DNA of 64,000 nt from an uncultured bacterium. Its GTDB lineage: Bacteria; Elusimicrobiota; Elusimicrobia; Elusimicrobiales; Elusimicrobiaceae. The stretch lies in NCBI GenBank assembly GCA_949291515.1, contig CASEVY010000013.1, positions 16,389-80,388 of the forward strand, written 5' to 3'. The notes under the pieces were generated by a model. It searched no databases. It was not told where the DNA came from and saw only the letters and a program-made list of their open reading frames with translations. The position numbers were made by a program, and so were the translations under genes. The first letter of the stretch is position 1. Each line of letters opens with the position of its first letter. Positions 9,262 through 59,303 of the stretch are shown here, one piece after another.

Positions 9262-9293
9262 ACTCTATGCCTTTGGCGGCTTTGAAAAACTGT

Positions 9294-11132
9294 TTATTCC
9301 TCGCTTTCGCCTTCTTCTTTGCGGTTGGCGCGACGGCGCTCGTGGATATTAAGTATTTTCTTTCTTAAACGTATGGAAGTGGGCGTTATCTCCACAAGTT
9401 CGTCCGGCGCGATGTATTCTATTGCTTGCTCGAGGCTCATTATTCGGGGCGGGGTCAAAAGCAGAGCGTCGTCTGCCGCTTTAGAGCGCATATTCGAAAG
9501 CCTCTTTGTCTTATTCGGGTTGACCACCAAATCATTGTCGCGCGAGTTCTGCCCGACTATCATACCCTCATAAACCTTTACCCCTGGCCCCACGAACAGT
9601 TGTCCGCCGTCCTGCAAACTGTTAATGGCGTAGGCCGTCGTTTCACCCGCTTCCTTGGCGATAAATACGCCGTTGCTCCTTAAGGGCGGTACGTCTACCT
9701 TGGGATAATAGCCGTAAAAGCTGTGGTGCATTATACCTTTGCCGCGGGTAGAGGTTAAAAATTCGTTCTTAAAGCCTATCAAAGCGCGCGAAGGAATTAC
9801 ATATTCAAGTCTTAATCTGTTTTCGCCCTCGCTTACCATATTCTCCAGCTTGGCGCCGCGCGTACCGACAAGTTCGAACACCGCGCCCTGCATTTCGGAC
9901 GTTATATCCAAAATAAGATATTCCATAGGCTCGAGTATTTTGCCGTTTTCCTCTTTGTAAATAACTTCCGGCGAGGATACCGCCAGCTCAAAACCCTCGC
10001 GGCGCATATTCTCGATTAAAATCGTCAGATGCAGTTCACCCCTGCCCGATACTTTAAAACGGCCCTCGCCTTCCAACTGCTCCACTTTAAGACCGACATT
10101 CGTCTGAGCTTCTTTCTCTAGACGCGCTTTTAGGTGGCGGCTGGTAAGGAATTTGCCCTCGCGCCCGGCAAAAGGCGAATCGTTGACGAAAAAATCCATA
10201 GATATCGTCGGCTCGTCGATAGAAAGCGGCGGCAAAGGAATAGGATTATCCGGGTGGCATACCGTATCGCCCACGTCTACCCCCTCAAGACCGCTTATCG
10301 CCACTATATCGCCCGCTTTAGCGCTTTCAGTTTCCGTCTTGCCAAGGCCCAAAAACTTCTCTATCTTCACCGCTTTTGCCGGCACGCTGCCGCCGCGGTT
10401 CTTTAACAATACTACGCTGTCGCCTTTGCTGACGCTGCCGTTAAGTATGCGCCCTATGCCGATATGCCCCAAAAAGTTATTGTAATCAAGCATAGTAACC
10501 TGCATTTGAAGCGACTTCGCTTCGTCCGCTTCCGGCTCCGGCACATATTTGATTATGGCGTCGAAAAGCGGTTTTATGTCAGTGCCGCGCTCTTCCATTT
10601 TGTCGCTGGCCCAACCCTCTCGGCCGGAGGCGTAAAGTATAGGGAAATCCAATTGTTTGTCGTCGGCGCCAAGCTCCATAAACAGTTCAAACACTTCGTC
10701 GACTACGGCCGAAGGGCGCGCGTTTTCCCTGTCCATTTTGTTTACCACCACTATCGGGCGCAGCCCCAAAGCCAAAGCCTTTCTCAGTACGAAACGAGTC
10801 TGCGGCATAGGCCCTTCCACCGCGTCTACCATCAGTATCGCGCCGTCTACCATCTTTAGCACGCGCTCCACCTCGCTGCCAAAGTCCGCGTGGCCCGGAG
10901 TGTCTACTATGTTTACCGTATAATCTTTATACTTTACCGAAGTGCATTTGGCCAAAATCGTTATTCCGCGTTCCCGCTCGATAGGGTCGCTGTCCAATAC
11001 CGCTTCCTGCGCTTCGTCCTGTTTTACCTTAAATTGGCCCGCGTATTTAAGCAACGCGTCCACCACCGTCGTCTTGCCGTGGTCTACGTGCGCTATTATC
11101 GCTACGTTCCTGATGTCCTTTCTCGTGTTCAT
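9294..11132 (-). CDS. typA: Translational GTPase TypA/BipA
   Basis: [27 protein letters not shown]-motifs. The 612-aa length and C-terminal domain are characteristic of BipA. Confidence 0.95.
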
Positions 11133-11164
11133 ATTTTCCTTCCGTATTTATCTTAAAAATCTCC

Positions 11165-11198
11165 AAAAAACACTGCCCGCAGGCTTAGCCGCGGGCAG
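11165..11198 (-). terminator. Terminator of the gal operon
   Basis: Minus strand reads CTGCCCGC-(10 nt)-GCGGGCAG followed by TGTTTTTTGG. Confidence 0.7.
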
Positions 11199-11223
11199 CA
11201 TCTCTTCTACGCCTTTAATTATA

Positions 11224-12735
11224 TTATATCTTATATATAAACCGCAGAAAAGCCTCTTTCCCCTCGGCGTCGTGCTTGAATACCCCGCAAGAACCCAAAA
11301 CCTTGACAAAAGTGCGCCCGATTTCCTCAAGCAGTATATCTGGCACGTCCTCGGCTTTAAATCCTTTATAATCGCCGATAAAGCTCATTACCCAATTATA
11401 GTGCTGCGCCAATGATGACAAATCTTTCATCTTTTCCATCTTGCCCGCCGCTATCAAAGCCCCGATTTGAGCCATCTCGTTCTTAAGCCTGCCCGGCAAT
11501 ATCGCCATACCAAGAGCCTCTATAAGACCTATATTCTCCCGCTTGATATTGTGGTATTCCGGACGAGAATGGAATATCCCCCAAGGATATTCCTTGCTAG
11601 TCCTGTTGTTGCGGAGAACCAAATCCATCTCGTATGCGCCGTCCTTATAGCGCGCTATCGGCGTTATAGTGTTATGCGGTGTTTTGCCCGTAGCGTGGAT
11701 TATACCGACTTTTTTATCGTCGTATTTGCGCCACACTTCCAATACCCGCGCCGAAGCCTTCGCCACCTGCGTTTTGGGGCCTCTTACCCGCAAAACCGAA
11801 AGCGGCCAGCACACTATATCGAAAGTAACTTTAGGGAACTTCTTTACTTTGAACCGCTTTACGGACTGCGCACGCTCCATCGGGAATACATACCGCCCCG
11901 CCTGATAATGGTCGTGCGTCAGTATCGAGCCGCCGACTATCGGCAAATCCGCGTTGGAACCTATAAAATAGTGCGGGAACTGCTCCACGAAATCCAATAA
12001 ATTCTTGAAAGTATCGGCGCTGATGTGCATGGGCCGATGATCTTCCGCAAAAACAATGCTGTGCTCGTTGTAATATACGTACGGCGAATACTGGAAATAC
12101 CACCTCTTCCCGTTGAGTTTCAAAGGTATTATGCGCAAATTCTGCCGCGCGGGGTGGTTCAAACGCCCAGCATACCCCTCGTTTTCCCTGCACAACATAC
12201 ATTTGGGATAAGCGTTGGGGCTGACTTTTATCTTACCCTGCAAAGCTATTTCCTTAGGGTCCTTTTCAGGCTTTGACAGATTTATCGTCATATCTATCTT
12301 GCCGTATTCGGTATCCGCTTTCCAGGTAATATTCTTGGCGACTCTGTCCGTCTTGATATAATAAATCTTGCGGCAATATTTATAAAATTCAGAAGTCGCT
12401 TTCTTTATCCCCTTATCACGCCAAGTATCGTAGAATATTTTTGATACTTCGCTGGGGCGCTTGGTAAATACCGCCATTATGGAAGTTTCAAATATCTCGC
12501 GGTAGGTGGAAGTAGCTGCCTCCAAAAGACCGTTCTCCGAAGCGTAAAAAGATATGTCGGAAAGTATTTCCCCCGGATTATCCGGCAATGGGCCTTTATA
12601 CGGCGCGGCATTATTGTTATCGGGCAAATTGAGCAGCGCCAATATGCTGTTGCGCGCCCAAATTTCGTCTTCCTTTTCGATAAGTTTATTCTTTAACCCG
12701 TAAGCTATAAGTTCTTCTACGTTGGAGTATATCAT
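11224..12735 (-). CDS. galT: UDP-glucose--hexose-1-phosphate uridylyltransferase (long, type-2 GalT)
   Basis: About 500-aa GalT with LTHDHYQAG. I prefer the start at 12735 (GAGGA RBS, no overlap with the galE stop) over the ORF-track start at 12780. Confidence 0.85.
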   Translation of the reverse strand: MIYSNVEELIAYGLKNKLIEKEDEIWARNSILALLNLPDNNNAAPYKGPLPDNPGEILSDISFYASENGLLEAATSTYREIFETSIMAVFTKRPSEVSKIFYDTWRDKGIKKATSEFYKYCRKIYYIKTDRVAKNITWKADTEYGKIDMTINLSKPEKDPKEIALQGKIKVSPNAYPKCMLCRENEGYAGRLNHPARQNLRIIPLKLNGKRWYFQYSPYVYYNEHSIVFAEDHRPMHISADTFKNLLDFVEQFPHYFIGSNADLPIVGGSILTHDHYQAGRYVFPMERAQSVKRFKVKKFPKVTFDIVCWPLSVLRVRGPKTQVAKASARVLEVWRKYDDKKVGIIHATGKTPHNTITPIARYKDGAYEMDLVLRNNRTSKEYPWGIFHSRPEYHNIKRENIGLIEALGMAILPGRLKNEMAQIGALIAAGKMEKMKDLSSLAQHYNWVMSFIGDYKGFKAEDVPDILLEEIGRTFVKVLGSCGVFKHDAEGKEAFLRFIYKI

Positions 12736-12749
12736 CTTAAATCCTCGGT

Positions 12750-13724
12750 TCAGTATCGCCGCTTTTGCTCCCAGCGCCAAGCGGTCTTTATGATTTTATC
12801 TAAATTATACAAAGTTTCCCAACCTAAAACCCGTTTGGCTTTGGCACTGTCGGCAACAAGCACTGCCGGGTCGCCCGCGCGCCGAGCCGCCGTTTCCACC
12901 TTGAAATCCCGCCCCGTTACGCGTTTTGCGCTTTCTATTACCTCTTTTACGGTGAAACCTTCCCCGCTGCCTAAATTAAAATCGTCGCTTTCTCCGCTAC
13001 GCGCCATCTTCTCCAGCGCCAAAATGTGCGCGCTCGATAAATCGTTGACGTGTACAAAATCCCTTACGCAGCTGCCGTCTTTGGTCGGATAATCCGTACC
13101 GAATATCTTTATGCTTTCCCTTTTGCCCGCCGCAGCTTGCAATATTATCGGCAGAAGATGCGTTTCTGGCGTATGCGATTCGCCTATCTTCCCGCCGTCG
13201 TCCGCGCCCGCCGCGTTAAAATACCTTAGAACGCTGCTCTTAAGGCCGTAGGCCTTGTCGTAATCCTTTAAAACCTTTTCAACCATAAGTTTGCTTTGCC
13301 CGTAAGGATTTATCGGGTTTTGCGGGTGCGCCTCAGATATCTTCGGTTCGACGGGTTCCCCAAATGTAGCCGCGGTTGATGAAAATACAAAATATTTTAT
13401 ACCGTTTTCCACCATCGCGTCCAAAAGCGATATCACCTTAACTATATTGTTGTTATAGTATCTCGCCGGCTCTTTCACGCTTTCGCCGACCTCTATAAAT
13501 GCGGCAAAGTGCATTACAGCTTCTATATCGTGTTTTTTAAATACGCGGGCGAGTTTCTTCTTGTCGCCCAAGTCGCCTTTCTCAAATTTAATACCCCGCA
13601 CCGCCGCCCTGTGACCCTTGGACAAATTATCGTACACTACGGGGTTATAGCCCCTTTCCTTCAGCATTTTTACGCAGTGGCTGCCGATATAGCCCGCCCC
13701 GCCGACCACTAAAATATTCTTCAT
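12750..13724 (-). CDS. galE: UDP-glucose 4-epimerase
   Basis: GGAGYIGSH Rossmann motif, YGQSK catalytic motif, and position between galK and galT. Confidence 0.9.
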   Translation of the reverse strand: MKNILVVGGAGYIGSHCVKMLKERGYNPVVYDNLSKGHRAAVRGIKFEKGDLGDKKKLARVFKKHDIEAVMHFAAFIEVGESVKEPARYYNNNIVKVISLLDAMVENGIKYFVFSSTAATFGEPVEPKISEAHPQNPINPYGQSKLMVEKVLKDYDKAYGLKSSVLRYFNAAGADDGGKIGESHTPETHLLPIILQAAAGKRESIKIFGTDYPTKDGSCVRDFVHVNDLSSAHILALEKMARSGESDDFNLGSGEGFTVKEVIESAKRVTGRDFKVETAARRAGDPAVLVADSAKAKRVLGWETLYNLDKIIKTAWRWEQKRRY

Positions 13725-13754
13725 TTCTTTTCCTCGCCTTTCAGCCGTTAATTT

Positions 13755-14912
13755 TTATATCTTCTTCGCGCCCGATCCTATTTGAGCTACGTAAAAAGAG
13801 GGTTTTATCCCCATTGCCGCTTCATATTCAGCGCCCGCTTTGTTTTGAACTTCTTCCAAAAACTCGTTCTTGACCAAAGCTATACAGCACCCGCCGAAGC
13901 CGCCGCCCATCATTCTCGCCCCGATTACGCCTTCGCATTTCTGCAGGGCTTCAGCCATTGTATCCAAAGCCTTGCCCGTAACCTCGTAATTGCTCTTTAA
14001 AGACTCGTGGGAAGCGTCCATCAGCTTGCCAAAAGCCGCTATATCGCCTTTCTTAAGAAGGGCGACCGCCTCAAGCGTGCGGGCGTTCTCCTCAACGGCG
14101 TGGCGCGCACGGCGGTAGAGGACATCGTCCGATATAAGTTCCTTCCCCTTTTCCAAATCGGAAGGCTTCAACTCGCATAAATAATTGACTTTATACTTGC
14201 TTTGAAGAAGTTTTAAAGCCTCCTCGCATTGGCTGCGTCTGGTATTGTACTCGCTGCCCGTAAGTTTATGATTGTTGTTGGTGTTGGCTATCAATATCGA
14301 TACCCCGTGCAATACTATCGGACAATAGGAATATTCCAAAGTGTTGCAGTCGAGCAATATCGCATTGTCTTTCTTCCCCATCGCCGAAGCGAATTGGTCC
14401 ATTATCCCGCAGTTCATTCCGACAAATCCGTTCTCCGCGCGCTGAGATATTTTGGCAAGCTCTATAAGATTGTATCCCAAATTGTAAAAGTCGTTTATCA
14501 TCGCGGCGGTAACCACCTCTATCGAAGCAGAAGACGATAACCCCGCGCCGTTGGGAACGTCGCCGTAATACAATGCGTCGAATCCGCCGTTAAGGATATG
14601 CCCGTCCTCTTTAAACATCGCCGCGACTCCTTTGGGATAATCGGCCCAATTGCCGCCTTTTTTTATATCGTTTATTTCGCCGGATATTATACCTTCGTCT
14701 TCAAAGTTTAAGGAGTAAAAATTTATCTTCCCGTCTTGACGCTTTGACGCGGCCAAATATGTGCCGAAAGTCAAAGCGCACGGAAATACGTGCCCGCCGT
14801 TATAGTCCGTATGTTCCCCTATCAAATTTGCTCTGCCCGGCGCAAAGAAAACCGCCGCGCTCTCACGACCGAATACCTTTTTGAACTTCGCCCTCAATTC
14901 GTTTATTTCCAT
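13755..14912 (-). CDS. galK: Galactokinase
   Basis: Galactokinase signature GRANLIGEHTDYNGG and GHMP motif GAGLSSSAS. Confidence 0.9.
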   Translation of the reverse strand: MEINELRAKFKKVFGRESAAVFFAPGRANLIGEHTDYNGGHVFPCALTFGTYLAASKRQDGKINFYSLNFEDEGIISGEINDIKKGGNWADYPKGVAAMFKEDGHILNGGFDALYYGDVPNGAGLSSSASIEVVTAAMINDFYNLGYNLIELAKISQRAENGFVGMNCGIMDQFASAMGKKDNAILLDCNTLEYSYCPIVLHGVSILIANTNNNHKLTGSEYNTRRSQCEEALKLLQSKYKVNYLCELKPSDLEKGKELISDDVLYRRARHAVEENARTLEAVALLKKGDIAAFGKLMDASHESLKSNYEVTGKALDTMAEALQKCEGVIGARMMGGGFGGCCIALVKNEFLEEVQNKAGAEYEAAMGIKPSFYVAQIGSGAKKI

Positions 14913-14972
14913 ATTCCTACCCCTTTAAAAAAAGGGGCCCCGCTCCGCGCAAGGCCCCATATTGGCAATTTA

Positions 14973-16685
14973 TTAAGCCGCTATTCCAAGTTTCGAGAAC
15001 AATATATACAAACCCACCACGCAGCACACTATCGCTATGCTGACGGGTACGGCCCTCTTCCACGGCGTCGTATCCACTACGTGTCTGTCGAGGCTGTCTT
15101 CATACTCGTGTTTGGAGGGATAGTAATGACCCATCACCACCATAAACAAAGAACATATCACAAACAGTATCGCCAAAATGTGCAGATAGTGTATGCTTGA
15201 AAATTCAAACAAAGGCTTCACAAACCACATCGGCATAGAGTTGTATATCGCACCCGCCACGCCTTTGAGCATCGTCGGATCGGCCATACCGCCCGCCATA
15301 AATGCTTTAAACCCGCCCGACATCGCCGTAAGCTGCGTCGTGCCGTACACCAATATGAATATCGCCAATGTTATCTTGGCCGATATCGCGGGCGCCTTCT
15401 TGTTGAGCATACCTATCAGCATCAAAGTCAATATCGGTACGTTGTAAAAACCGTTTACCGTCTGCAGATAATCAAACAGTCCGTTGGGCGCATTGGCTAT
15501 CATCGGCGCTACTATCATTGAAAATATCGCCAGTATCGCCGCCGCTATCTTACCCTTGCGGACAAGTTCCTTCTCGCTCGCTTTAGGATTGATATACTCC
15601 TTATAAATATTAAGCGTAAATAATGTAGAAGTTGAGTTTAAACCCGCATTGAAAGAACTTAATATCGCACCGAACAGTACCGCGGCGAAAAATCCAACCA
15701 GGAACCACGGCAATACCGCCTTAACCAACATCGGATAAGCAAAGTCGCTCATCTCCAAGCCAGGCCCGAATATCTTAAACGCTATTATGCCGGGCAATAT
15801 CAAGAATAAAGGCCCAAACAACTTAAGTATCGCCGCGTATAATATACCCTTTTGCCCTTCTTTTAAATCCTTTGCCGCCAAAGCGCGCTGTATTATGGTT
15901 TGGTTCGTTCCCCAATAAAACAAATTTACCAAAAACATTCCGGTAAACATCGTCGCAAACGGTACGGGATCGCTGCTGCTGCCTATGGAGTTAAACTTCT
16001 CCGGCACTGACGTTACCAGTACGCTAAAGCCTTCCACCGGATTGCCGCCTCCGATATACATCAGCCCGAAAAGCGGTATCATAAGCCCGCCTATCAAAAG
16101 ACCTATACCGTTTATCGTATCGGCTATCGCCATAATCTTCAAACCGCCGCTCAAAGTGTATATTATGCCCAATATGCCGATAGACCATACCACGATATAT
16201 ATTCCCTGCATCTTCGTTATCCCGAAAGTGCCTTCCAAATCAAATATCCCGCTTAATCCTATCGCACCCGAATATAATACTATCGGTACAAATATCAGTA
16301 CATATCCGAAAAGAAAAAACCAGTTTACCACCTGCTTGGTAACATTATCGTATCTTTCCCCGATAAAATCCGGTATAGTGGCGTACCCCTTTTTCAAATA
16401 CCTGGGCAAGAAGAAAAACGCCACCACTATCAAAGCCAGCGACGCTCCGACTTCCCACCCCATTACCGACATATTGTCCGTATAGCCCTGCCCGTTCAAA
16501 CCGACCATCTGTTCCGTAGACAAATTGGTCAACATCAACGACGCCGCTATTACCCAACCCGTCAAGCCTCTGCCCGCCAAAAAATAGCCCGTTTCGGTAT
16601 GGGTGTTCACATTTCTGGTTTTATAATAAGAAATGCCGTAGACCAACAATGTAAATGCCAAAAAAGATAAGACCGTAAGTAACAT
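14973..16685 (-). CDS. Sodium:solute symporter (SSS family), probable Na+/galactose transporter
   Basis: About 13 TM segments and SSS-type sequence. It is the first gene of the Leloir operon. Start ATG 16685 sits 5 nt after GGAGG; the ORF-track TTG at 16688 is too close to the RBS. Confidence 0.85.
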   Translation of the reverse strand: MLLTVLSFLAFTLLVYGISYYKTRNVNTHTETGYFLAGRGLTGWVIAASLMLTNLSTEQMVGLNGQGYTDNMSVMGWEVGASLALIVVAFFFLPRYLKKGYATIPDFIGERYDNVTKQVVNWFFLFGYVLIFVPIVLYSGAIGLSGIFDLEGTFGITKMQGIYIVVWSIGILGIIYTLSGGLKIMAIADTINGIGLLIGGLMIPLFGLMYIGGGNPVEGFSVLVTSVPEKFNSIGSSSDPVPFATMFTGMFLVNLFYWGTNQTIIQRALAAKDLKEGQKGILYAAILKLFGPLFLILPGIIAFKIFGPGLEMSDFAYPMLVKAVLPWFLVGFFAAVLFGAILSSFNAGLNSTSTLFTLNIYKEYINPKASEKELVRKGKIAAAILAIFSMIVAPMIANAPNGLFDYLQTVNGFYNVPILTLMLIGMLNKKAPAISAKITLAIFILVYGTTQLTAMSGGFKAFMAGGMADPTMLKGVAGAIYNSMPMWFVKPLFEFSSIHYLHILAILFVICSLFMVVMGHYYPSKHEYEDSLDRHVVDTTPWKRAVPVSIAIVCCVVGLYILFSKLGIAA

Positions 16686-16727
16686 CAAGACCTCCGTTTA
16701 AAGATGAAATGACTACACCTACATCTC

Positions 16728-16757
16728 AAATGTAACATTTATGTCTTACCTTGTAAA
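16728..16757 (-). promoter_or_regulatory. Putative gal-operon promoter with an overlapping 13-bp palindromic operator
   Basis: Minus strand reads TTTACA (16757-16752)-N17-TACATT (16734-16729). The perfect palindrome AAATGT-A-ACATTT (16728-16740) overlaps the spacer and the -10. Confidence 0.45.
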
Positions 16758-16783
16758 GAATCTTTTACGATACAGAATAATAC

Positions 16784-16815
16784 AAAAAACGGCGGGCTCT
16801 TTTTCTCGCCCGCCG
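16784..16815 (-). terminator. Terminator of the giant-protein gene
   Basis: Minus strand reads CGGCGGGC-(10 nt)-GCCCGCCG followed by TTTTTTG. Confidence 0.75.
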
Positions 16816-16841
16816 CTTATCAAATGAAAATTCATTCGGCC

Positions 16842-19800
16842 TTAGTTTGGAAGAGGATTGTTTAAATCCGTCGTAGGAGGTTCGTCACCTTTGTCTTTGC
16901 CGCCTTTTATCTTATCCTTGTACAAGCCCACCACATAGTCCGAAGCCTCTTTGAATTCCTGTTTGATAAATTTATATAAAGTGGAATTATCCAACATTTT
17001 ATTCGTCGCTATCATACTTGCCACCAGCATCGCCAGCGACGCCATTACCCTGGCGTAAGGAACGTTTAGCCAATCGTTCAAATACGTTATAGGCATTGAA
17101 AGCCCTACCGCTATAGGCATAGTAAAGCTCATTCCTTGCGATATTTGGCTTTGAAGTTCGGGGTGTTTCCTTATAATATACGCAAACATCTGCGAGAAGT
17201 AATTCCCCATACCTATACTGGCTATCACGCCGCCCGATACTATCAGGGACGGCAAATCGGCCATTATACCCGCCAATATGCCCGCCGTACCCAAACCGGA
17301 AAGCGAAGAATACGCCAAATAAGACGTACCCGAAGACATTCTGGTAGTAGTTATATTGCCAAGCAATCTGCCTATCATCAAAGAGCCGTATAACACGCCT
17401 ATTACCATTACGGTAGCCATATCGCCGTCGGGTATTATCTGATATAACGTAGAAGAAAACGCGCTGGATATCGAAAGCTCGTGCGCCGTCGCCAAAGACA
17501 TTCCCACCACTACACTCATAACGCTTTCTTTGTGCAGCATAATGTCGAAGACCTCTTTTATATCCTGCCAGTAGCTCTTTTTTTCCGTCTGTTTAGCGCT
17601 TTCGGCCGCTATCGCCGCGGCTTCGGTTTCGTCGCCCGCAGGCGCCATTTGATATACGTCATTCTTAATATGGTCTATTATTACATTATCCCTTAAATTA
17701 GTACGATGAACCCTATAACCCGCGTAGGCGCTGTATGCCGCATATAGCGGCAAAGATACGTCCCAGCCGAAATTAAAGTCCATACCAAAAGCACGCCCCG
17801 CATAGTTTAAAGCCGAAGGCGCCACCAAAAACGCAATCGTGCCTAAATTCTTGTTTATAAAGCTGCGGTTGTAAAATAATATGTCCTCCATCGAAAAATC
17901 GCTGCTGCTGGAAAACAAATTCTTGAACTTATCTATTAAAATATCTGTTGTAATCTTAAGCGCTTCGGAAAAGTTCTGCTCTTCCTTTTTCTTCTCTCTT
18001 GATATCGGCATCGCGCCCCTGTTCATATTTATCAGCGAGTTGCCCAAAACATTCCTTATGTTTATCGAAAAACCCAAAGCGAACAACGCCAAACCAAGCG
18101 AAATATTCCTAAGCAATGTCGGCTCCATTTCGTAAGAGTATCCGTAAAAACCGAATATTGCCGGCACCACCGCCGCCAGCATTGATATTACTATCGACAC
18201 TTTAAACATCGCCACTTCGCCGTATTTCTTTACCAAAGGATTTAACATCGGCGACAATAAACCCGGCAAATAGTTTACCACGTACATCAAGTTAGTCGCA
18301 AAAGCCTCGCTGACACCCAAAGATTCCGGCAATACCGGCCCCAATGTTTTGCCTAAACTGGGGTTAATGTAAAAACCTTCTTTGGTTATTACGTCCGCCT
18401 TATTGTAGTTTTGCATTACCTCTATGGGCAATACCTCTTTGGACTGCGCCAAAACTTTAAGTAAAATGCCGCGCTGATTTTTCGGTATTCTAACCACTAC
18501 GGAGGAACCCAAAGTCGTCGGCATTGCCGATTTATCCGACAGCACTCCCATGTTGCCAGAAGGCATTAATACCAGCTTGCCGCCTTGTTTTAGGAAATTG
18601 GCGTCGGTTATCACTTTTATCGGAAGTTCTTCACTCCCGTCGGCGCTATATAGCGGAACCGTAGCCGTTTTGGAAGGCTCTATCCCGTACTGCCAAAATT
18701 TTATAGTTATATTTTCTTTGGCGTCTTTAAGGGCTTGAGCGAATTTTAAAAGGCTCTTATTATCCGTCTTAAGCCGCAAGTAGAAGTTGGACATCGTCCT
18801 GGGCTTTTTGCCAAATTCCCTAAGCTCAGCGGTATTGTTGTTAAAGACTATATTCGTATAGCCGTTGGTTTCGAAATCCTCGTTGAAAGAAAGCGCCACC
18901 GGCAAAACCATATCGCGCCCCGCACCGTTCATAACGCTTACAGTATAACTCTTGCCTTCAAGGGTGGCGTCAAATCTGCGAAAACCCGCCGCCGCCATAG
19001 CTTCCGAAGAGGACGCTATATTCTCCCCGTTGACAAACATCGCCTTCCTGTTTATGGATATATAGTCATTCAAACCGCCGTCCAATTTAGGAGAAAACGA
19101 CGCGTTCCCCTCCTCTATATTGCGGTAGAACATTGATACCAAAGAATATTCACCGGCGTGCCTCAAGGCATTAAACACTATCACCAATTCCTGCCCGTCC
19201 GCCCCTTTTATGCGATAGGTAAGTTTTTCCGGGAAGCCGGCCTCTTCTACTACCGGGGCATACTCTCTCAATATAGAAGATAGGCTGAGCACATCTGCTT
19301 TAGTTATATACTTCTCGCCGTTATATTTGCGCCCGTCTTTTATTCTGTTTTCGGAGTGTTTGTATATTATCTTTACAAGACCGAAGTTGGAAAATGTCCC
19401 TCTAAGACGTTTAAGCTCCGGCCCCTGAACCACCAATTCGCCCTTCCTGTTCGTGGCCGCATGGCCGTGCAGGATCTTAAAAGTGATGCCGTCGACTTTT
19501 ATTTCCGCCATTACCTTGGAGCCTTTGCCCTTGGGATTGGCTTTAACTTCGTCCCAGGCATTTGAAAGGGCTTTCCCCTCAATTATTTTCTGCTGAGACG
19601 CCGAGCGTCTTTCCCGCTCTTGCGCATAATACGAACCCGTCCTGTATGTCGAGAACGACGAAGCCAAATGCGGTATGGCCGGTATTTCGTAGACATATTT
19701 GTCCGCGGAGAAACGCCCGGCTATATCTTTATATTCCTTGGGCCAAGCAAAACGCCAGCCGCCAAGTTCCGCCGCTTTGCGGCTCAATTCCAACGAGAAG

Positions 19801-22800
19801 TCGCTGCCGCCATAGAGCGCGAAGGCGCGAATGTCGGAATAGTCCGAAAATTTAACGCCGGAAGATTGCGCGTGGCCGGGATTTATATTAAGCAATTTTC
19901 TGTCAAAATAACCATACAAATCCCGGGTAAACATAAAACCCATTCCGACAGTTCCGGCCAATACATAACCAGCCTTTGAAACATTGCTCAAAAGTCCTTT
20001 AACGCTTAAACTGTTTACGAAATTGCCGCCTGGCAGCGGAACCCCGCCGAAAAATTCAAATATCTTCGGATCTATTACGTTTACCGGCTGAATTTTAGGC
20101 ATAGCCGGCATAAGCGGCATACTCGCGCTCCGCGCTCCAAAGCTAAACGTTTTGCCCAAAGACAAACCTTTCTCCGCGTTTAGAGCCAATTCCGTTCCCG
20201 CCTTTAATCCCCCGCCAAAAGCACCGACTTCCGGAACCGTCGTCGCTACGTTATAATTAAATATAAGAGCAGTGCCGAATACCGTCGCCCTGTTGTTAAT
20301 AAATCTAAGGAAATCCGCCGCGGGCTTCATCTTGTGCGCGGAAAGAAAATTGTAAAACTTGTTTACAGGCGTCTTATCAGAAGCGCCGCCAAAGAGTTTA
20401 AAACCTTTCGTATAATCGGGATTGTACGGACGGTTTATTCCTAAAGCCTCGGCTATGGTTACGCCTCTCTCGGTTTCAAGAGCGGCTATCCCCAAAGTGC
20501 CGTCGCCCGAAGGCGCCCAAAAATTCTGCCACGGCTTTAATACGTTCTTATTCCACCAGCCGGCGGCTTTGTAATCGGCCCTGGCAATATTCAATCTGTT
20601 AAGACTTGAGGAAAAAACTTCACCCGCCCTTAAATATCCGCGTTCGCCCGCCGTATACAAAGGAGCCGAAGGCTTTTGTTTTAGGGCGGAACCTAAAACT
20701 TCTGTCTCTTTGGCAAGAGCGCGCCCCTCGGCGTTCAGAGGACCTTCAGCCCTCAAAGCCTCCAATTTAGACAATTTCGAATTATATATATTTACGTTTG
20801 AATTATAATCTTTAACTTTCTGCAAATATGAAGCGTTTTTGCTTTCCACAGCCGAAGCGTGCGCTCTGGCTTTTTTAATCAAATCTATCTGCGCTTGCTT
20901 AGCTTTGTATTGAGCCGTAGCCAATTTGGCTTTCGCCGTTTGCCTCTGTGTAGGATTGGAACCGGTCCTGACCGCCATTACGGCTTTCTTGCGAGCGTCG
21001 TATAAAGACGCAAGCCGCTTATTGTTAAAGTAATTTTCCAATTTTATGGCCTGACGGCTCTCGTTTGTGCCCATTGCGGCAGCGGCCGCGCCTTTTACCT
21101 GTACAGAAGAGCTCTTTATCCTCCCGCTCAAGCGCAGCATATTGTTGCGAGCGGATACATATTTGCCCAGTTTGGCGTAATTGGCTTTAATATAGGCTAT
21201 CCTCTTGGCGTTATCGGCTATTCGTCCCGCCTTTACAGCAGTATATGTGGACTTGCTCAAAGCCAAAGCCTTCCCTCCCAGTTTTGCCAGGCCAACAGTT
21301 CCCCATATAAGCAGCAATATATCGCCGGCAAAAGCGGCTCTGTCCAAATAATCAAACCCGATATTGCGCCGCTTCCTCGCATCAAGGCGGGCCTGCGTTA
21401 TTACCGCACCGTTATTAAGTTTCCCTTTTATCGCGGGATATCTGGCAAGCAGATCCCTGTCTATATCGTATTCCTGTATAGCGGTTATATCGCCCAAAGT
21501 CAAATTGGCCAATTCTGCCGCCATATTCTGCGCCGCGGCAGACGTCAAACCGGATTTCCCGCTTATCAGAGCGCCAGCCAAAAACGGTTTTATTCCGCCT
21601 TGCAATCCTTTATCGGCTCCGTATTCTTTAAGTATGGCTAAAGATTCTTTCCCGCCGTCCTGCGCCAACAAAAGCGCGATATCGGTAAACGAATTGCCGT
21701 AAAGATATTCGCCGTTGTATTGCGTAAGAGAAGACGCCCCGCCCAAAAACCTGCCGCCGGCCGTACGCACTTTTGAAGAGTAAAAAGTCAAATTCAAATA
21801 TTGGCCCCAGCCGCCGCTTTCTTTTTCTTTTGCCGTATAACGGTTAAGTATTTCCCTTAAAGAAGCATAATTGCCCGCCGCCAACAATGCCGAAAAACCG
21901 TTGCTCAGTATCTGTCCGAAGCCTGCCCCCTTTTCCGAGGCATATATAACCCTTTTTACCGCTTTGGCATAACGCCCGCCGTCTTTGCCCGATACATAAG
22001 AGCCAATAACTATGGTGTCTATGATATCACTAAGCAGGAAAGCGGCGACTTTTTTTTCTTTCTTCCCGTCGGTAATACCAAGCTCGAGCGATTTTAAATT
22101 CTGTTTTTCCAAACGCGACACCGCATAATTGTATATTTTCCCTTTTTCCGATGCGGTTATTACAGCCTTTCCGCCTATCTTAAGGTTGACAATGTAGCGC
22201 AAAACGTTTGAAGACAAATTCTCCGCACCGACGGCTTCTATATACTTGCGCAGAATTTTGTAAGCCGCCGCGTCAACTTTGCTTTTGTTTGCCGCGCGCC
22301 AGGCGATTTCCTCTTTTGCCTCTCTTTTATACTCGGCATAGTACTCTTTAAGAGGGTATGCCTCTTTCAGCTTGGCAGCCGCGGCTGCTGCCGGGCTTTT
22401 ATACGGAATGGCGCTTTGCGAAGGATTGTTCTTAACATATTCTTCAGCCGCTTCCGCTATAATAGAATTGTAAATTTTCTCATACTCTTTTAAAGGCATT
22501 ACGGAAAGGCCAATAAATTGTGCCGCCAAATAGGACAACATATCATTTTCCAAAGACTTAATATTGTTTGCTCCGGCCCTCTTCACATACATCGGGGCCA
22601 TCAATCCGTATTTTGAGGCGCCAGTTTTCCTCAAAGCGGCTATTTTTAGGCGATTTTTATTTCCTTCCAAGGCCTTTAAAATCAAGTTAGTTTCTCTGTT
22701 AAGCGAGGATTCGTAGACATTCCCGTCTTCACCCTTAAAAAACAAATCTTCCAATTTGGCGTCGAAAGCGGCGGACTGTGAGGCGTCAATTTCCCCCCAA

Positions 22801-22928
22801 GCGACACCTTTGCCCCAAGATGGCAATCCCGCTTGCGCAAAAGCCGCCGTATTACATTCGAACAGAATAGCAAAAGACAAAACTGCCGAAATAATCTTTA
22901 CGCACCAAGAAGAAACTCTCTTTTTCAT
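16842..22928 (-). CDS. Giant (2,028 aa) signal-peptide protein with a C-terminal polytopic (MFS-like) membrane domain; function unknown
   Basis: Uninterrupted 6,087-nt ORF. Signal peptide MKKRVSSWCVKIISAVLSFAILFECNTAAFAQA. An Ala/Lys-rich coiled-coil-like stretch lies around aa 600-760, and scattered hydrophobic segments follow. The last ~600 aa contain about 11-12 hydrophobic helices split by a long charged loop. Confidence 0.8.
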   Translation of the reverse strand: MKKRVSSWCVKIISAVLSFAILFECNTAAFAQAGLPSWGKGVAWGEIDASQSAAFDAKLEDLFFKGEDGNVYESSLNRETNLILKALEGNKNRLKIAALRKTGASKYGLMAPMYVKRAGANNIKSLENDMLSYLAAQFIGLSVMPLKEYEKIYNSIIAEAAEEYVKNNPSQSAIPYKSPAAAAAAKLKEAYPLKEYYAEYKREAKEEIAWRAANKSKVDAAAYKILRKYIEAVGAENLSSNVLRYIVNLKIGGKAVITASEKGKIYNYAVSRLEKQNLKSLELGITDGKKEKKVAAFLLSDIIDTIVIGSYVSGKDGGRYAKAVKRVIYASEKGAGFGQILSNGFSALLAAGNYASLREILNRYTAKEKESGGWGQYLNLTFYSSKVRTAGGRFLGGASSLTQYNGEYLYGNSFTDIALLLAQDGGKESLAILKEYGADKGLQGGIKPFLAGALISGKSGLTSAAAQNMAAELANLTLGDITAIQEYDIDRDLLARYPAIKGKLNNGAVITQARLDARKRRNIGFDYLDRAAFAGDILLLIWGTVGLAKLGGKALALSKSTYTAVKAGRIADNAKRIAYIKANYAKLGKYVSARNNMLRLSGRIKSSSVQVKGAAAAAMGTNESRQAIKLENYFNNKRLASLYDARKKAVMAVRTGSNPTQRQTAKAKLATAQYKAKQAQIDLIKKARAHASAVESKNASYLQKVKDYNSNVNIYNSKLSKLEALRAEGPLNAEGRALAKETEVLGSALKQKPSAPLYTAGERGYLRAGEVFSSSLNRLNIARADYKAAGWWNKNVLKPWQNFWAPSGDGTLGIAALETERGVTIAEALGINRPYNPDYTKGFKLFGGASDKTPVNKFYNFLSAHKMKPAADFLRFINNRATVFGTALIFNYNVATTVPEVGAFGGGLKAGTELALNAEKGLSLGKTFSFGARSASMPLMPAMPKIQPVNVIDPKIFEFFGGVPLPGGNFVNSLSVKGLLSNVSKAGYVLAGTVGMGFMFTRDLYGYFDRKLLNINPGHAQSSGVKFSDYSDIRAFALYGGSDFSLELSRKAAELGGWRFAWPKEYKDIAGRFSADKYVYEIPAIPHLASSFSTYRTGSYYAQERERRSASQQKIIEGKALSNAWDEVKANPKGKGSKVMAEIKVDGITFKILHGHAATNRKGELVVQGPELKRLRGTFSNFGLVKIIYKHSENRIKDGRKYNGEKYITKADVLSLSSILREYAPVVEEAGFPEKLTYRIKGADGQELVIVFNALRHAGEYSLVSMFYRNIEEGNASFSPKLDGGLNDYISINRKAMFVNGENIASSSEAMAAAGFRRFDATLEGKSYTVSVMNGAGRDMVLPVALSFNEDFETNGYTNIVFNNNTAELREFGKKPRTMSNFYLRLKTDNKSLLKFAQALKDAKENITIKFWQYGIEPSKTATVPLYSADGSEELPIKVITDANFLKQGGKLVLMPSGNMGVLSDKSAMPTTLGSSVVVRIPKNQRGILLKVLAQSKEVLPIEVMQNYNKADVITKEGFYINPSLGKTLGPVLPESLGVSEAFATNLMYVVNYLPGLLSPMLNPLVKKYGEVAMFKVSIVISMLAAVVPAIFGFYGYSYEMEPTLLRNISLGLALFALGFSINIRNVLGNSLINMNRGAMPISREKKKEEQNFSEALKITTDILIDKFKNLFSSSSDFSMEDILFYNRSFINKNLGTIAFLVAPSALNYAGRAFGMDFNFGWDVSLPLYAAYSAYAGYRVHRTNLRDNVIIDHIKNDVYQMAPAGDETEAAAIAAESAKQTEKKSYWQDIKEVFDIMLHKESVMSVVVGMSLATAHELSISSAFSSTLYQIIPDGDMATVMVIGVLYGSLMIGRLLGNITTTRMSSGTSYLAYSSLSGLGTAGILAGIMADLPSLIVSGGVIASIGMGNYFSQMFAYIIRKHPELQSQISQGMSFTMPIAVGLSMPITYLNDWLNVPYARVMASLAMLVASMIATNKMLDNSTLYKFIKQEFKEASDYVVGLYKDKIKGGKDKGDEPPTTDLNNPLPN

Positions 22929-22996
22929 TTGTTGTTTACCGTTTAATTCCCGTTGGCTCCGAGTCCTTTACCTTTTACTTTATTGTTTTCAAAGCC

Positions 22997-23029
22997 AAAA
23001 AAAAGGCGTCTAAATATTTTTAGGCACCT
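22997..23029 (-). terminator. Intrinsic terminator/attenuator between the leader ORF and the giant gene
   Basis: Minus-strand RNA reads GGUGCCUAAA-AAUA-UUUAGACGCC followed by U8. This is a 10-bp stem with 1 mismatch and 1 wobble, and it overlaps the leader ORF stop codon. Confidence 0.55.
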
Positions 23030-23196
23030 TTTCCGAAATCCGATTTTGTTTCTATGCGGCAACAATCCTCTCTATCGCCGTCCGCGGCACTCCCGCAGGG
23101 GAAATGCGCGCCGAATACCAAACGCTTAAAGCGGGCCCTGCTTTTGCAAGCACAGGCGCCTCCTTCGCTTCCGTTTAATAAATAATTTATAAACAT
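23020..23196 (-). CDS. Candidate 58-aa Cys-rich leader peptide (below the ORF-track cutoff)
   Basis: My translation: MFINYLLNGSEGGACACKSRARFKRLVFGAHFPCGSAADGDREDCCRIETKSDFGKGA. Weak RBS (AAGGGA). It starts ~54 nt downstream of the predicted TSS of composite promoter E and ends inside a terminator hairpin. Confidence 0.25.
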   Translation of the reverse strand: MFINYLLNGSEGGACACKSRARFKRLVFGAHFPCGSAADGDREDCCRIETKSDFGKGA

Positions 23197-23256
23197 CTTT
23201 GGTATCCCTTTTCTGAAATATACACAGTGCCGAAATGAGTATTTAGTTATATTTAA

Positions 23257-23326
23257 ATTTTATTTTTTTACGGCTTCTCCCTCAAGCCGATTTTAGGCCC
23301 ATTCTTAACTGGGTCTTAAGTCCTAC
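23257..23326 (-). promoter_or_regulatory. Composite promoter copy E (distal box + proximal box + TTGAGG-N17-TAAAAT)
   Basis: Gene orientation: AGGACTTAAGACCC-N10-GGGCCTAAAATCGGC-TTGAGG-N17-TAAAAT. The -35 is at 23280-23285 and the -10 at 23257-23262. Confidence 0.65.
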
Positions 23327-23430
23327 GGAAAGTTTTCACGCTTGTGTTTCACATATACGTTGCGTACAAAGTTATAGACATATCCTAAAGCGTGCGTAAA
23401 ACATACAAGCCTCAAGATGAGGTTATGCAT

Positions 23431-23456
23431 TAAAAAGCCCCGGTTGCCCGGGGCTT
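23431..23456 (-). terminator. Terminator of the NifU-like/GGGtGRT operon
   Basis: Minus strand reads AGCCCCGG-gcaa-CCGGGGCT followed by TTTTT. Confidence 0.75.
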
Positions 23457-23469
23457 TAAATTTGCTTCT

Positions 23470-24468
23470 TTATTTTGAGGCTTCCTCTATCGCTACCGCT
23501 ACCGCGACGCTTGCGCCTACCATCGGGTTGTTACCCATACCGATTAGGCCCATCATCTCGACGTGCGCGGGAACGGAAGAAGAGCCCGCGAACTGCGCGT
23601 CGCCGTGCATACGGCCCATGGTATCGGTCATACCGTAGGAAGCGGGACCCGCGGCCATATTGTCGGGGTGCAGCGTCCTGCCGGTGCCGCCGCCGGAAGC
23701 TACCGAGAAGTATTTTTTGCCGTGTTCGGTCGCCCATTTCTTATAGGTGCCGGCTACGGGGTGCTGGAAGCGGGTCGGGTTGGTGGAGTTGCCGGTAATG
23801 GAAACGTCCACGTCCTCGTGCCTCATTATCGCGACGCCTTCGTTGACGTCGTCGGCGCCGTAGCATTTCACCTTGGCTTTATCGCCGTCGGAGAAAGCCT
23901 TCTCGCTCACGATATTGAGTTTGCCCGTATAGTAATCGTAAGAAGTTTCGACATACGTAAACCCGTTGATGCGGGATATAATATAAGCCGCGTCTTTGCC
24001 AAGACCGTTCAAAATAACTTTAAGCGGTTCTTTTCTTACCTTATTGGCAGTTCTGGCAATACCGATTGCGCCTTCCGCCGCGGCGAAAGATTCGTGCCCC
24101 GCCAAGAAGCAGAAGCATTTGGTATTTTCGCGCAGCAGCATAGCGGCCAAATTGCCGTGGCCAAGGCCTACTTCGCGCTGATCGGCTACGGAGCCGGGTA
24201 CGCAGAAACTCTGCAAGCCTACGCCGATTTTCTCGGCCGCTTCGGCCGCGGTTTTTACACCACTCTTTATCGCTATCGCCGCGCCTACCGTATAGGCCCA
24301 GACGGCGTTTTCAAAAGCGATGGGCTGTATCCCTTTTACTATTTTTTCAACATCTATGCCCTTGTCCTCGCAAATTTTCTTGGCTTCTTCCAAGGAGGCT
24401 ATGCCGTTCTCTTTCAAGGCGGCGTTTATTTTGTCTATTCTTCTTTCATAACCTTCAAATGTAATCAT
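23470..24468 (-). CDS. GGGtGRT-family protein (conserved, function unknown)
   Basis: Contains the eponymous motif SGGGTGRTLHPDNM. About 330 aa and paired with a NifU-like gene, as is usual for this family. Confidence 0.8.
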   Translation of the reverse strand: MITFEGYERRIDKINAALKENGIASLEEAKKICEDKGIDVEKIVKGIQPIAFENAVWAYTVGAAIAIKSGVKTAAEAAEKIGVGLQSFCVPGSVADQREVGLGHGNLAAMLLRENTKCFCFLAGHESFAAAEGAIGIARTANKVRKEPLKVILNGLGKDAAYIISRINGFTYVETSYDYYTGKLNIVSEKAFSDGDKAKVKCYGADDVNEGVAIMRHEDVDVSITGNSTNPTRFQHPVAGTYKKWATEHGKKYFSVASGGGTGRTLHPDNMAAGPASYGMTDTMGRMHGDAQFAGSSSVPAHVEMMGLIGMGNNPMVGASVAVAVAIEEASK

Positions 24469-24488
24469 AGTGTTATATTCCTCCCCGG

Positions 24489-25190
24489 TTACTCTTTGCG
24501 CGGATCTATCTTCTTGACGGCTTCGTTAAAGCGCCCGTAAGAATTGATGTTCTTCTCATAGGCGGTTTTGGGATCTTCGCCTTTCTTTATGGCGTCCATC
24601 ATCTTGCCCAAGTTGACGAATTTGTATCCGATGACTTCGTTATTCTTGTCGAGGCCGATCTCAAGGACATAGCCTTCCGCCATTTCCAAGTAGCGGGGCC
24701 CTTTGGCTTCGGTGCTGTACATCGTGCCGACTTGCGAGCGCAAGCCTTTGCCCAAATCTTCCATACCGGCGCCTATCGGCAAGCCGTCGTCGGAGAACGC
24801 GCTCTGCGTTCTGCCGTATACTATCTGGAGGAATAATTCTCTCATGGCGGTATTGATTGCGTCGCATACCAAGTCCGAATTTAAAGCTTCAAGAATGGTT
24901 TTGCCCGGCAAAATTTCCGCCGCCATCGCGGCCGAGTGCGTCATACCGGAGCAGCCCAAAGTTTCCACCAAGGCTTCCTTTATTATGCCGTTCTTTACGT
25001 TTAACGTAAGTTTGCACGCGCCCTGCTGGGGTGCGCACCAACCCACACCGTGCGTAAGACCGCTGATATCCGTTATCTGTTTGGAATTGACCCATTTTCC
25101 TTCTTCAGGGATAGGGGCCGGATTATGTTTAGCGCCTTTGCATACGCTGCACATATTTTCAACGTGAGGGGTGCATTTTTCGCAGCTCAT
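24489..25190 (-). CDS. NifU/IscU-N-like Fe-S scaffold-type protein with an N-terminal Cys cluster
   Basis: The IscU-like core GCSGMTHSAAMAAEILPGKTILEA carries a Cys-rich N-terminus (CEKC...CSVC). It sits 20 nt upstream of the GGGtGRT gene. Confidence 0.75.
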   Translation of the reverse strand: MSCEKCTPHVENMCSVCKGAKHNPAPIPEEGKWVNSKQITDISGLTHGVGWCAPQQGACKLTLNVKNGIIKEALVETLGCSGMTHSAAMAAEILPGKTILEALNSDLVCDAINTAMRELFLQIVYGRTQSAFSDDGLPIGAGMEDLGKGLRSQVGTMYSTEAKGPRYLEMAEGYVLEIGLDKNNEVIGYKFVNLGKMMDAIKKGEDPKTAYEKNINSYGRFNEAVKKIDPRKE

Positions 25191-55254: not shown

Positions 55255-55323
55255 ATTCTAAAAAACTATCCGCTTACCTGCAAGAGACTTTGGCCCCAAT
55301 CGCAAATGGGTCTTTAGTCCTAT
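55255..55323 (-). promoter_or_regulatory. Composite promoter copy B
   Basis: Gene orientation: AGGACTAAAGACCC-N10-GGGGCCAAAGTCTC-TTGCAG-N17-TAGAAT. The -35 is at 55278-55283 and the -10 at 55255-55260. Confidence 0.65.
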
Positions 55324-59233: not shown

Positions 59234-59303
59234 ATTATAGTTATTCTCCCGCTCCCTTTACAAGAGAAAAAGGGCCCCCCTGACCTTAGGCCCTTAGACC
59301 TAT
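59234..59303 (-). promoter_or_regulatory. Composite promoter copy C
   Basis: Gene orientation: AGGTCTAAGGGCCT-N9-GGGGCCCTTTTTCTC-TTGTAA-N18-TATAAT. The -35 is at 59258-59263 and the -10 at 59234-59239. Confidence 0.65.

Follow-up and report, generated by a model that had tools for sequence, protein, structure and literature searches.

The 64,000-nucleotide stretch of DNA analysed here in full (the window; contig CASEVY010000013.1 of assembly GCA_949291515.1, from an uncultured member of the Elusimicrobiaceae) carries on its reverse strand a giant gene encoding a protein of 2,028 residues, the longest open reading frame (ORF) of the 64 kb. The giant protein is best read as a clade-specific, enlarged form of a protein family found in nearly all gut and rumen Elusimicrobiales. 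Our favoured interpretation, held tentatively and at a little under an even chance, is that it is a membrane-anchored envelope protein in which a conserved bundle derived from the major facilitator superfamily (MFS) does the core job and a long exported arm, of a type associated with biological conflict, diversifies rapidly.

According to this interpretation, a Sec signal peptide would export the N-terminal ~1,500 residues and a C-terminal MFS-derived bundle of 11 helices, without the canonical first helix, would retain the protein in the cytoplasmic membrane. The bundle would be the slow-evolving functional core and is probably a working translocator. The arm would be modular and fast-evolving, composed of a helical N-module, a coiled-coil-like (CC) stretch, a Gly/Phe-rich region (M1), an optional cassette and a juxtamembrane domain (SOL). 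Its most likely role would be in conflict at the envelope, either by excluding phages or by antagonising nearby cells, and the cassette would act there as effector or decoy. The coordinates of all these parts are collected in Table 1.

The giant ORF is a real chromosomal gene, neither a chimera nor a pseudogene, because independent assemblies carry copies of it and an ortholog lies in the same synteny. A full-length copy from an independent assembly (P0001) is 99.85% identical, the ortholog (P0002, 83% identical to the giant protein) is present on 23 contigs, and other full-length homologs range from 72% down to 49% identity. The reading frame is uninterrupted in many independent assemblies and base composition along the gene is even. 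The ortholog's locus has the neighbours seen in the window: upstream, genes for a GGGtGRT-family and a NifU-like protein; downstream, an SSF symporter gene, galK, galE and galT. With the single sequence, the module consensuses and the whole-family profile, searches of Pfam, NCBIfam, PADLOC and PDB sequences gave no match before residue 1500. All relatives that bear a name are called 'hypothetical protein' and come from Elusimicrobia metagenome-assembled genomes (MAGs), and our literature search found no paper describing this architecture. The original prediction, which was made from the DNA letters alone, had picked out the ORF as the largest gene in the window and did not recognise its architecture as a described one; both statements hold. 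Of the outcomes that it had named as fatal, a chimera or pseudogene is ruled out by the independent assemblies and the syntenic ortholog, and the profile searches did not assign the whole protein to any characterised family.

Module boundaries were set by BLAST and hidden Markov model mapping of the giant protein against its homologs. The protein opens with a Sec-type signal peptide whose predicted cleavage site is AFA/Q, and an N-terminus of the same type, ending A-x-A/Q, was found in all relatives inspected. The arm of ~1,500 residues that follows is free of internal repeats (self-BLAST gives the diagonal only). N2, the second part of the N-module, is the most widely shared part of the arm. 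It has invariant residues (including G479, D480, E486 and D490) and includes a buried hydrophobic helix at residues 532-555. The CC stretch is common to paralogs up to residue ~700. SOL invariably precedes the membrane module in the family. Its AlphaFold2 (AF2) model has a predicted local distance difference test (pLDDT) of 70-87 over residues ~1322-1507, and its consensus has no match in Pfam. Residues 294-312 and 532-555 were considered as membrane helices and rejected: they contain conserved Asp and Lys, and counting them in would turn round the C-terminal bundle relative to the orientation that its charges fit. Three features of the arm had been predicted earlier and are borne out: the signal peptide (MKKR, a hydrophobic core and AFA/QAG, of one type across the family), about 1,400 residues without repeats, and an Ala/Lys-rich coiled-coil-like stretch around residues 600-760, which composition places at 601-800.

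The hydrophobic helices of the C-terminal domain fall into two groups (residues ~1541-1737 and ~1804-1978) with a charged loop between them. Hydropathy and AF2 secondary structure give five helices in the first bundle (TMa) and six in the second (TMb), hence 11. A consensus of 46 family members matches the Pfam profile MFS_1 with 47.8 bits (E=1.3e-12; cut-off 33.4) and MFS_2 with 27.3 bits (cut-off 27), scores to be read with the reservation on consensus sequences given below; individual relatives reach 24-32 bits against MFS_1. As in the MFS (PF07690, PF13347), there are two helical bundles with a long basic cytoplasmic loop between them, and the family's motif G-R-L-x-G-N follows the second helix of the second bundle. 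We also take a stretch of the form L-G-P-x-L-P...L-G-V-S, with the loop after the next helix, to resemble the MFS region from the end of the first transmembrane helix (TM1) to motif A. The place of motif A itself (G-x3-D-R/K-x-G-R-R/K), after the first helix of TMa, is occupied by a degenerate N-P-L-V-K-K-Y-G-E, in which the Gly and the basic residues are kept and the Asp and the final Arg pair are gone. A divergent MFS origin is what these similarities suggest, and we accept it for the membrane domain.

The domain nevertheless differs from an MFS transporter of twelve helices in two bundles of six with both termini in the cytoplasm: its helices number five plus six and its charges fit an N-terminus outside. 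The canonical TM1 appears to be missing, the bundle starting at the equivalent of TM2, because the match of the relatives' first bundle begins at position ~17-19 of the MFS_1 profile and no hydrophobic helix precedes it. In the giant protein the corresponding stretch, TLGPVLPESLGVS, comes directly after SOL. A comparison of TMa with TMb by hhalign gave no significant internal-repeat signal, and the missing helix was not confirmed in that way. In the 11-helix model 31 Lys and Arg residues lie on predicted cytoplasmic segments, including a basic loop of 62 residues after the third helix of TMa, and one on the predicted outside loops. The topology would then have the arm outside and the C-terminus inside, since 11 helices follow an exported arm. 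Other departures from the MFS are the ~1,500 exported residues and beta-rich domain that precede the bundle and, in some relatives, a tandem second module. Of the earlier proposal of an MFS-type C-terminus, the two bundles, the charged loop and the superfamily (through the family consensus) have stood, and its count of about 11-12 helices is refined to 11.

TMb carries invariant polar motifs (T-x-H-E-x3-S-S, G-R-L-x-G-N and G-x-G-N-F/Y-F-x-Q-M). In comparison with the nearest ortholog, identity is 94-96% in the membrane bundles and 73-80% in the arm; for more distant orthologs the ranges are 69-84% and 37-50%. The giant protein as a whole is 83% identical to the nearest ortholog, whereas the flanking proteins are 95-100% identical. 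By these comparisons the arm changes far more rapidly than the genes on either side. We would argue for the membrane bundles as a working site rather than a passive anchor, because they combine the invariant polar motifs with the slowest evolution in the protein. Upstream of the giant gene, the window shares with one related locus (L005) a tract of ~2 kb at 94-99.8% identity, against a background of 86-92%; at the giant gene's start codon identity falls to 72-86%. Within this tract the 541 nucleotides directly upstream (22929-23469, reverse strand) are 99.8% identical to L005:7460-8000, but only ~82% identical to L009:860-1419, where a giant-type gene is also found. This looks like a recent recombination boundary at the start of the giant gene.

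Species-representative genomes contain 68 loci with the membrane module, nearly all of them in gut or rumen MAGs of Elusimicrobiales, Elusimicrobiaceae or Avelusimicrobium; most of the few that bear another label are from short contigs or from bins without a classification. Among gut and rumen Elusimicrobiales the combination of SOL and membrane module is near-universal. Searched exhaustively, a profile of residues 1000-2028 found 160 clusters, about half of which match the SOL-TMa-TMb unit and nothing else. The unit is to be regarded, from these profile matches, as a distinct family because the search brought no flood of ordinary transporters. The usual form of the family has ~1,250 residues: a similar signal peptide, a region of ~450 residues, SOL and the membrane module. 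Its N-terminal region shows no relationship by hhalign to N1, N2, CC or M1. In strongly conserved synteny, this form (loci L013-L076) lies downstream of an HD-domain gene and coaD and upstream of a PHP-family gene (on the opposite strand), a gene for an SH3-like secreted protein, two genes for small secreted proteins, and secA. The giant type, with the N-module, occurs in four species representatives, at other loci.

Two side observations concern this distribution. Four loci (L019, L031, L058 and L068) are labelled Eggerthellaceae, Muribaculaceae, Duodenibacillus or Spirochaetes; they lie on two ~5-kb contigs, one of 20.7 kb and one of 87.5 kb, and a binning or labelling error is more likely here than a true occurrence outside the Elusimicrobiales. 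In six others (L014, L034, L057, L059, L062 and L063) a second, strongly diverged MFS-like module comes straight after the first in the same ORF.

A simpler reading, which we consider somewhat unlikely, is that of an ordinary oversized solute transporter whose arm is a substrate-capturing, adhesive or periplasm-spanning accessory and whose cassette is an inactive passenger. It would suit the good conservation of the membrane bundle with its invariant polar residues within helices, the near-universal presence of the family in one order, usually among housekeeping genes, and the position of the window gene beside a sugar symporter gene and Leloir genes. This gal-gene neighbourhood, however, is not kept in the wider family, and the first MFS helix is missing. 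Moreover, such a transporter leaves three things unexplained: the divergence of the arm, which outpaces that of its gene neighbours, the kinase or protease domains of the paralogs, and the Lys, His and Ser that the cassette of the giant protein retains.

The cassette (residues ~1100-1290) is an optional insertion. It is present in five of ten close homologs and cleanly absent from the other five, in which the missing residues correspond to ~1100-1295. About 80 of the 160 clusters match the cassette only, in unrelated proteins of 100-2,777 residues. In an alignment of 72 such domains (numbered as in the giant protein) the conserved positions are 1154 (Arg 85%, His 10%; His in the giant protein), G1155 (99%), G1183 (100%), K1186 (99%), H1191 (93%), D1212 (88%), R1221 (90%), 1265 (Thr or Ser 89%; Ser in the giant protein) and S1279 (82%); where a single residue is named, the giant protein has it. 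The partner domains in other proteins are LPD22 with PBECR5, or LPD38. Three members match phrog_342, 'internal virion protein with endolysin domain', and two solo members lie inside myophage tail/baseplate modules, adjoining MuF_C and LPD3 genes. The cassette is a member of a domain family of phage virion and polyvalent proteins that Pfam does not model.

Its nearest described relatives appear to be the PBECR domains (PF18809, PF18812; MuF-C), which are defined by a His in the N-terminal helix, strands and a late Ser/Thr (Iyer et al. 2017, PMC5512222). With the family consensus the highest-ranking Pfam families are PBECR1, over almost the whole profile (positions 22-103 of 104), PBECR3 and, third, DUF4258; scattered members show weak matches to PBECR1, HigB_toxin and DUF4258. 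The AF2 model of the cassette (19 sequences; pLDDT 87.7, predicted template modelling score 0.84) has a long helix, a hairpin, a short helix at 1183-1191 carrying K1186 and H1191, helper helices at 1210-1222 and three long strands at 1235-1270, with S1265 in the last. The His in the first core helix and the Thr/Ser in a late strand are as in PBECR domains, and so is the occurrence both in LPD-bearing polyvalent proteins and in virion modules of phages; H1191 and S1265 would correspond to the PBECR catalytic residues. In a Foldseek search of BFVD the best matches are two large phage proteins (E=6e-5 and 1.5e-4, probability 1.0), one annotated 'Nuclease', followed at lower rank by PolyVal/LPD proteins. 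The cassette differs from PBECR in an additional N-terminal long helix and hairpin bearing an R/H-G-P/A-A motif, and in being embedded in the exported arm of a chromosomal membrane protein instead of a virion protein. The giant protein's own cassette has no match in Pfam, the family alignment found nothing useful among PDB sequences, and tblastn searches of GenBank phage genomes with the cassette consensus, P0081 and the giant-protein cassette gave no match. A remote relationship to PBECR RNases and an RNase-type nature are predicted; membership of PBECR proper is not established. The original prediction had noted a loose resemblance to BECR-fold RNases in a segment (residues 1151-1225) that proves to lie inside the ~190-residue cassette. 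The motifs that it quoted are conserved family motifs (in more than 70 members) and PBECR1 and PBECR3 do rank first, but the scores are below the curated cut-offs and no solved BECR structure is significantly similar.

A conflict role of the arm is suggested because the N-module is fused in paralogs to a Zeta-toxin-like kinase or a trypsin-like peptidase. These paralogs share the N-module (N2 most strongly) and are without the membrane module. They either end in a Zeta_toxin/AAA_33 P-loop kinase domain, which in the Zeta-type lies near the C-terminus, or have a peptidase domain of the Trypsin_2 family. The recognised effectors of phage and plasmid polyvalent proteins include both Zeta-like kinases and PBECR domains (PMC5512222).

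The same paralogs could point to a polymorphic-toxin-like secreted effector, in which the N-module would serve trafficking, the protein would be cleaved, the cassette (in paralogs the kinase or protease) would be delivered to competitors and the membrane module would export or auto-translocate the product. A signal peptide and a conserved N-module followed by payloads that vary among paralogs (Zeta-like kinase, trypsin-like peptidase, PBECR-like cassette) are typical of conflict systems, the cassette shows presence/absence polymorphism, two paralogs occur in tandem, and the protein diverges fast, with the near-identical tract of L005 stopping at the gene start. Unlike the payload of a polymorphic toxin, however, the cassette is internal: it occupies residues ~1100-1290 of the 2,028, and behind it come SOL and the membrane module, 730 well-conserved residues in all. 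The giant protein has neither a processing site nor a peptidase domain, nor a known trafficking domain; no known secretion-system marker domain was found with Pfam or NCBIfam; and the gene has no adjacent immunity gene. We regard this effector as distinctly improbable.

Several results weigh against the membrane-anchored envelope protein that we favour. Some concern its membrane part. Consensus sequences inflate profile scores, and the giant protein alone reaches 17.4 bits (E=0.002) against the MFS_1 cut-off of 33.4. The family profile found no MFS chain among PDB sequences. The AF2 model of the membrane part (residues 1300-2028, 12 sequences) has a pLDDT below 50, and Foldseek found nothing with it at E<=0.001. 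Cleavage of the signal peptide is predicted, and an uncleaved N-terminal helix could substitute for TM1; residues 532-555 could in principle span the membrane, which would alter the topology. Others concern the cassette. The consensus scores of 20.7 bits for PBECR1 (E=6e-4, cut-off 27.6) and 19.5 bits for PBECR3 (E=1e-3, cut-off 30) are below threshold. The model has no Foldseek match in PDB at E<=0.001, and thus none of significance to a solved BECR RNase; the best BECR matches are BrnT (probability 0.63) and HigB2 (0.30), both with E>0.2. One ortholog (P0003) has Asn in place of H1191. Finally, the proposed conflict role, which draws on domain content and evolutionary rate, must accommodate the internal, non-C-terminal position of the cassette, the lack of an immunity-like gene among the adjoining window genes inspected and of any PADLOC match to the giant protein, and the setting of the ~1,250-residue core form amid housekeeping genes, an argument for a housekeeping role. 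The internal cassette, the missing immunity gene and this synteny are also what speaks most strongly against a toxin.

An origin as a polyvalent protein, from a prophage or a conjugative element, is scarcely credible, and so is an assembly artefact or a pseudogene: the cassette family is phage-borne and host capture of polyvalent-protein domains has been described (PMC5512222), but the flanks are housekeeping genes in a synteny kept with the ortholog, composition is uniform, the frame is intact in many independent assemblies, and a signal peptide with an 11-helix domain would be atypical (the terms 'signal peptide' and 'transmembrane' occur nowhere in the text of PMC5512222). Assignment to a phage, prophage or conjugative element was rejected on account of the same flanks. 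There is no adjacent tRNA gene; the two tRNA genes of the window are 13 kb and 26 kb distant.

The envelope protein also has a partial parallel in known fusions. In LplT-Aas and MprF a polytopic module of transporter or flippase type is joined to a large soluble module in one polypeptide, and this soluble module is a cytoplasmic enzyme from a known family. In the giant protein, by contrast, the soluble part is predicted to be exported, measures ~1,500 residues, belongs to no known family and is hypervariable.

Table 1. Features of the giant gene and of its upstream region, in window coordinates
Feature	Residues	Position	Strand	Basis
Whole giant gene, 2,028 codons plus stop		16842..22928	(-)	single ATG-to-stop ORF
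Signal peptide (MKKR, hydrophobic core, AFA/QAG cleavage site)	1-31	22836..22928	(-)	read from sequence
N-module, N1 and N2	32-330 and 331-600	21129..22835	(-)	homolog mapping; no Pfam/PDB match
CC, Ala/Lys-rich helical, coiled-coil-like stretch	601-800	20529..21128	(-)	composition
M1, Gly/Phe-rich region	801-1095	19644..20528	(-)	kept in orthologs, partly in Zeta-type paralogs
Optional PBECR-like cassette	~1100-1290	19059..19631	(-)	presence/absence and family alignment
SOL, beta-rich juxtamembrane domain	1300-1535	18324..19031	(-)	homolog mapping, AF2
TMa, first membrane bundle, five helices	1536-1740	17709..18323	(-)	hydropathy, AF2 secondary structure
Central charged cytoplasmic loop (predicted)	1741-1800	17529..17708	(-)	charge/topology analysis
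TMb, second membrane bundle, six helices	1801-1980	16989..17528	(-)	part matching Pfam MFS_1
Basic cytoplasmic tail (predicted) and stop codon	1981-2028	16842..16988	(-)	charge/topology analysis
Composite promoter-like element: TAGGACTTAAGACCCA...TGGGCCTA inverted repeat, then TTGAGG-17-TAAAAT		23257..23330	(-)	
58-codon leader ORF, MFINYLLNG...KSDFGKGA*		23020..23196	(-)	sequence comparison
Terminator-like hairpin AGGTGCCTAAA/TTTAGACGCCT and T8		22997..23029	(-)	read from sequence

Three elements separate the GGGtGRT gene's terminator from the giant start codon: a promoter-like element, a short leader ORF and a terminator-like hairpin. Five orthologous loci have the leader ORF at the equivalent place and keep part of its sequence (M-[FL]-[IM]-N...ARFK..VF...KSDFGKG[AV]*). 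The hairpin holds the stop codon of the leader ORF, ends 69 nucleotides upstream of the giant start codon and is conserved in L009-L012; leader ORF and hairpin occur together in the five orthologous loci. This layout resembles leader-peptide attenuation. The 541-nucleotide leader region has no match in Rfam. A short element (TAGGAC..AAGACCCA..TGGGCCTA with -35/-10-like hexamers) has three matches in the window (23312-23325, 55309-55322 and 59287-59300, the copy at ~59.3 kb being less clear) against 0.33 expected, and may be a lineage-specific promoter or operator. The short inverted-repeat element stands ahead of several genes and is also found in the upstream regions of L018 and L045, two other Elusimicrobiales loci. 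The 541-nucleotide region was also considered as an extended repeat; this was rejected, there being no second copy within the window. The original prediction had placed the gene behind a leader ORF and a terminator, both of which are present and conserved, and behind a copy of a composite promoter; for the latter the short recurrent element can be retained, but not the extended repeat.

Directly upstream (window 23470-25190, reverse strand) lies a gene pair; one product is a GGGtGRT-family protein of very high conservation (Pfam E=1.7e-197), the other a protein with a weak NifU-like match. The nearest downstream gene, 154 nucleotides from the giant gene, encodes the SSF symporter of 571 residues.

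Three further observations concern the paralogs. In L008 (GCA_965315295.1) two paralogs of a distant branch are arranged in tandem (8001-12752 and 12970-17712; 1,583 and 1,580 residues) and adjoin genes for ankyrin-repeat proteins and a Peptidase_M15_3 gene. Two PADLOC models, LmuA (E=3e-10) and RT-Protease_XI (E=7.5e-12), match the trypsin-type paralog P0013 (residues 826-1017 and 1070-1262); both represent parts of anti-phage defence systems, known or candidate. The Zeta-type paralog P0011 is followed on the same strand, in two independent contigs, by two genes (L001:12868-14963; 307 and 391 residues, without a Pfam match), which are candidates for immunity or partner proteins.

The building blocks of the giant protein are of known kinds, from the MFS and the PBECR clade. 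Their arrangement, a TM1-less bundle with a dedicated juxtamembrane domain and a 1,500-residue exported arm, is not described in the libraries and literature searched, nor are the N-module and cassette families. The Elusimicrobiales are common in the gut communities of animals and humans but have hardly been cultured; among those of gut and rumen the membrane-module family is near-universal (68 species-representative genomes) yet unannotated. With a TM1-less MFS-type domain tied to so large an exported arm, one may ask what is translocated, or whether the bundle now serves as an anchor; the case is of interest for the limits to which the MFS fold can be reshaped. The cassette family is newly delimited, and the giant gene provides a clear case of a host envelope protein capturing a phage domain. 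With the fast modular evolution of its arm, the locus is a candidate marker of phage-host or inter-strain conflict in the phylum. A more far-reaching proposal, which we think unlikely, is a lineage-specific envelope machine in which an MFS-derived, TM1-less 11-helix translocator is permanently coupled through the juxtamembrane domain to an exported arm that diversifies quickly by module swapping and can recruit phage-derived effector domains, PBECR-like in the giant gene and a Zeta-like kinase or protease on the N-module of the paralogs. If true, phage exclusion or the delivery of effectors to neighbouring cells would here be the work of a membrane-anchored system of a new class.

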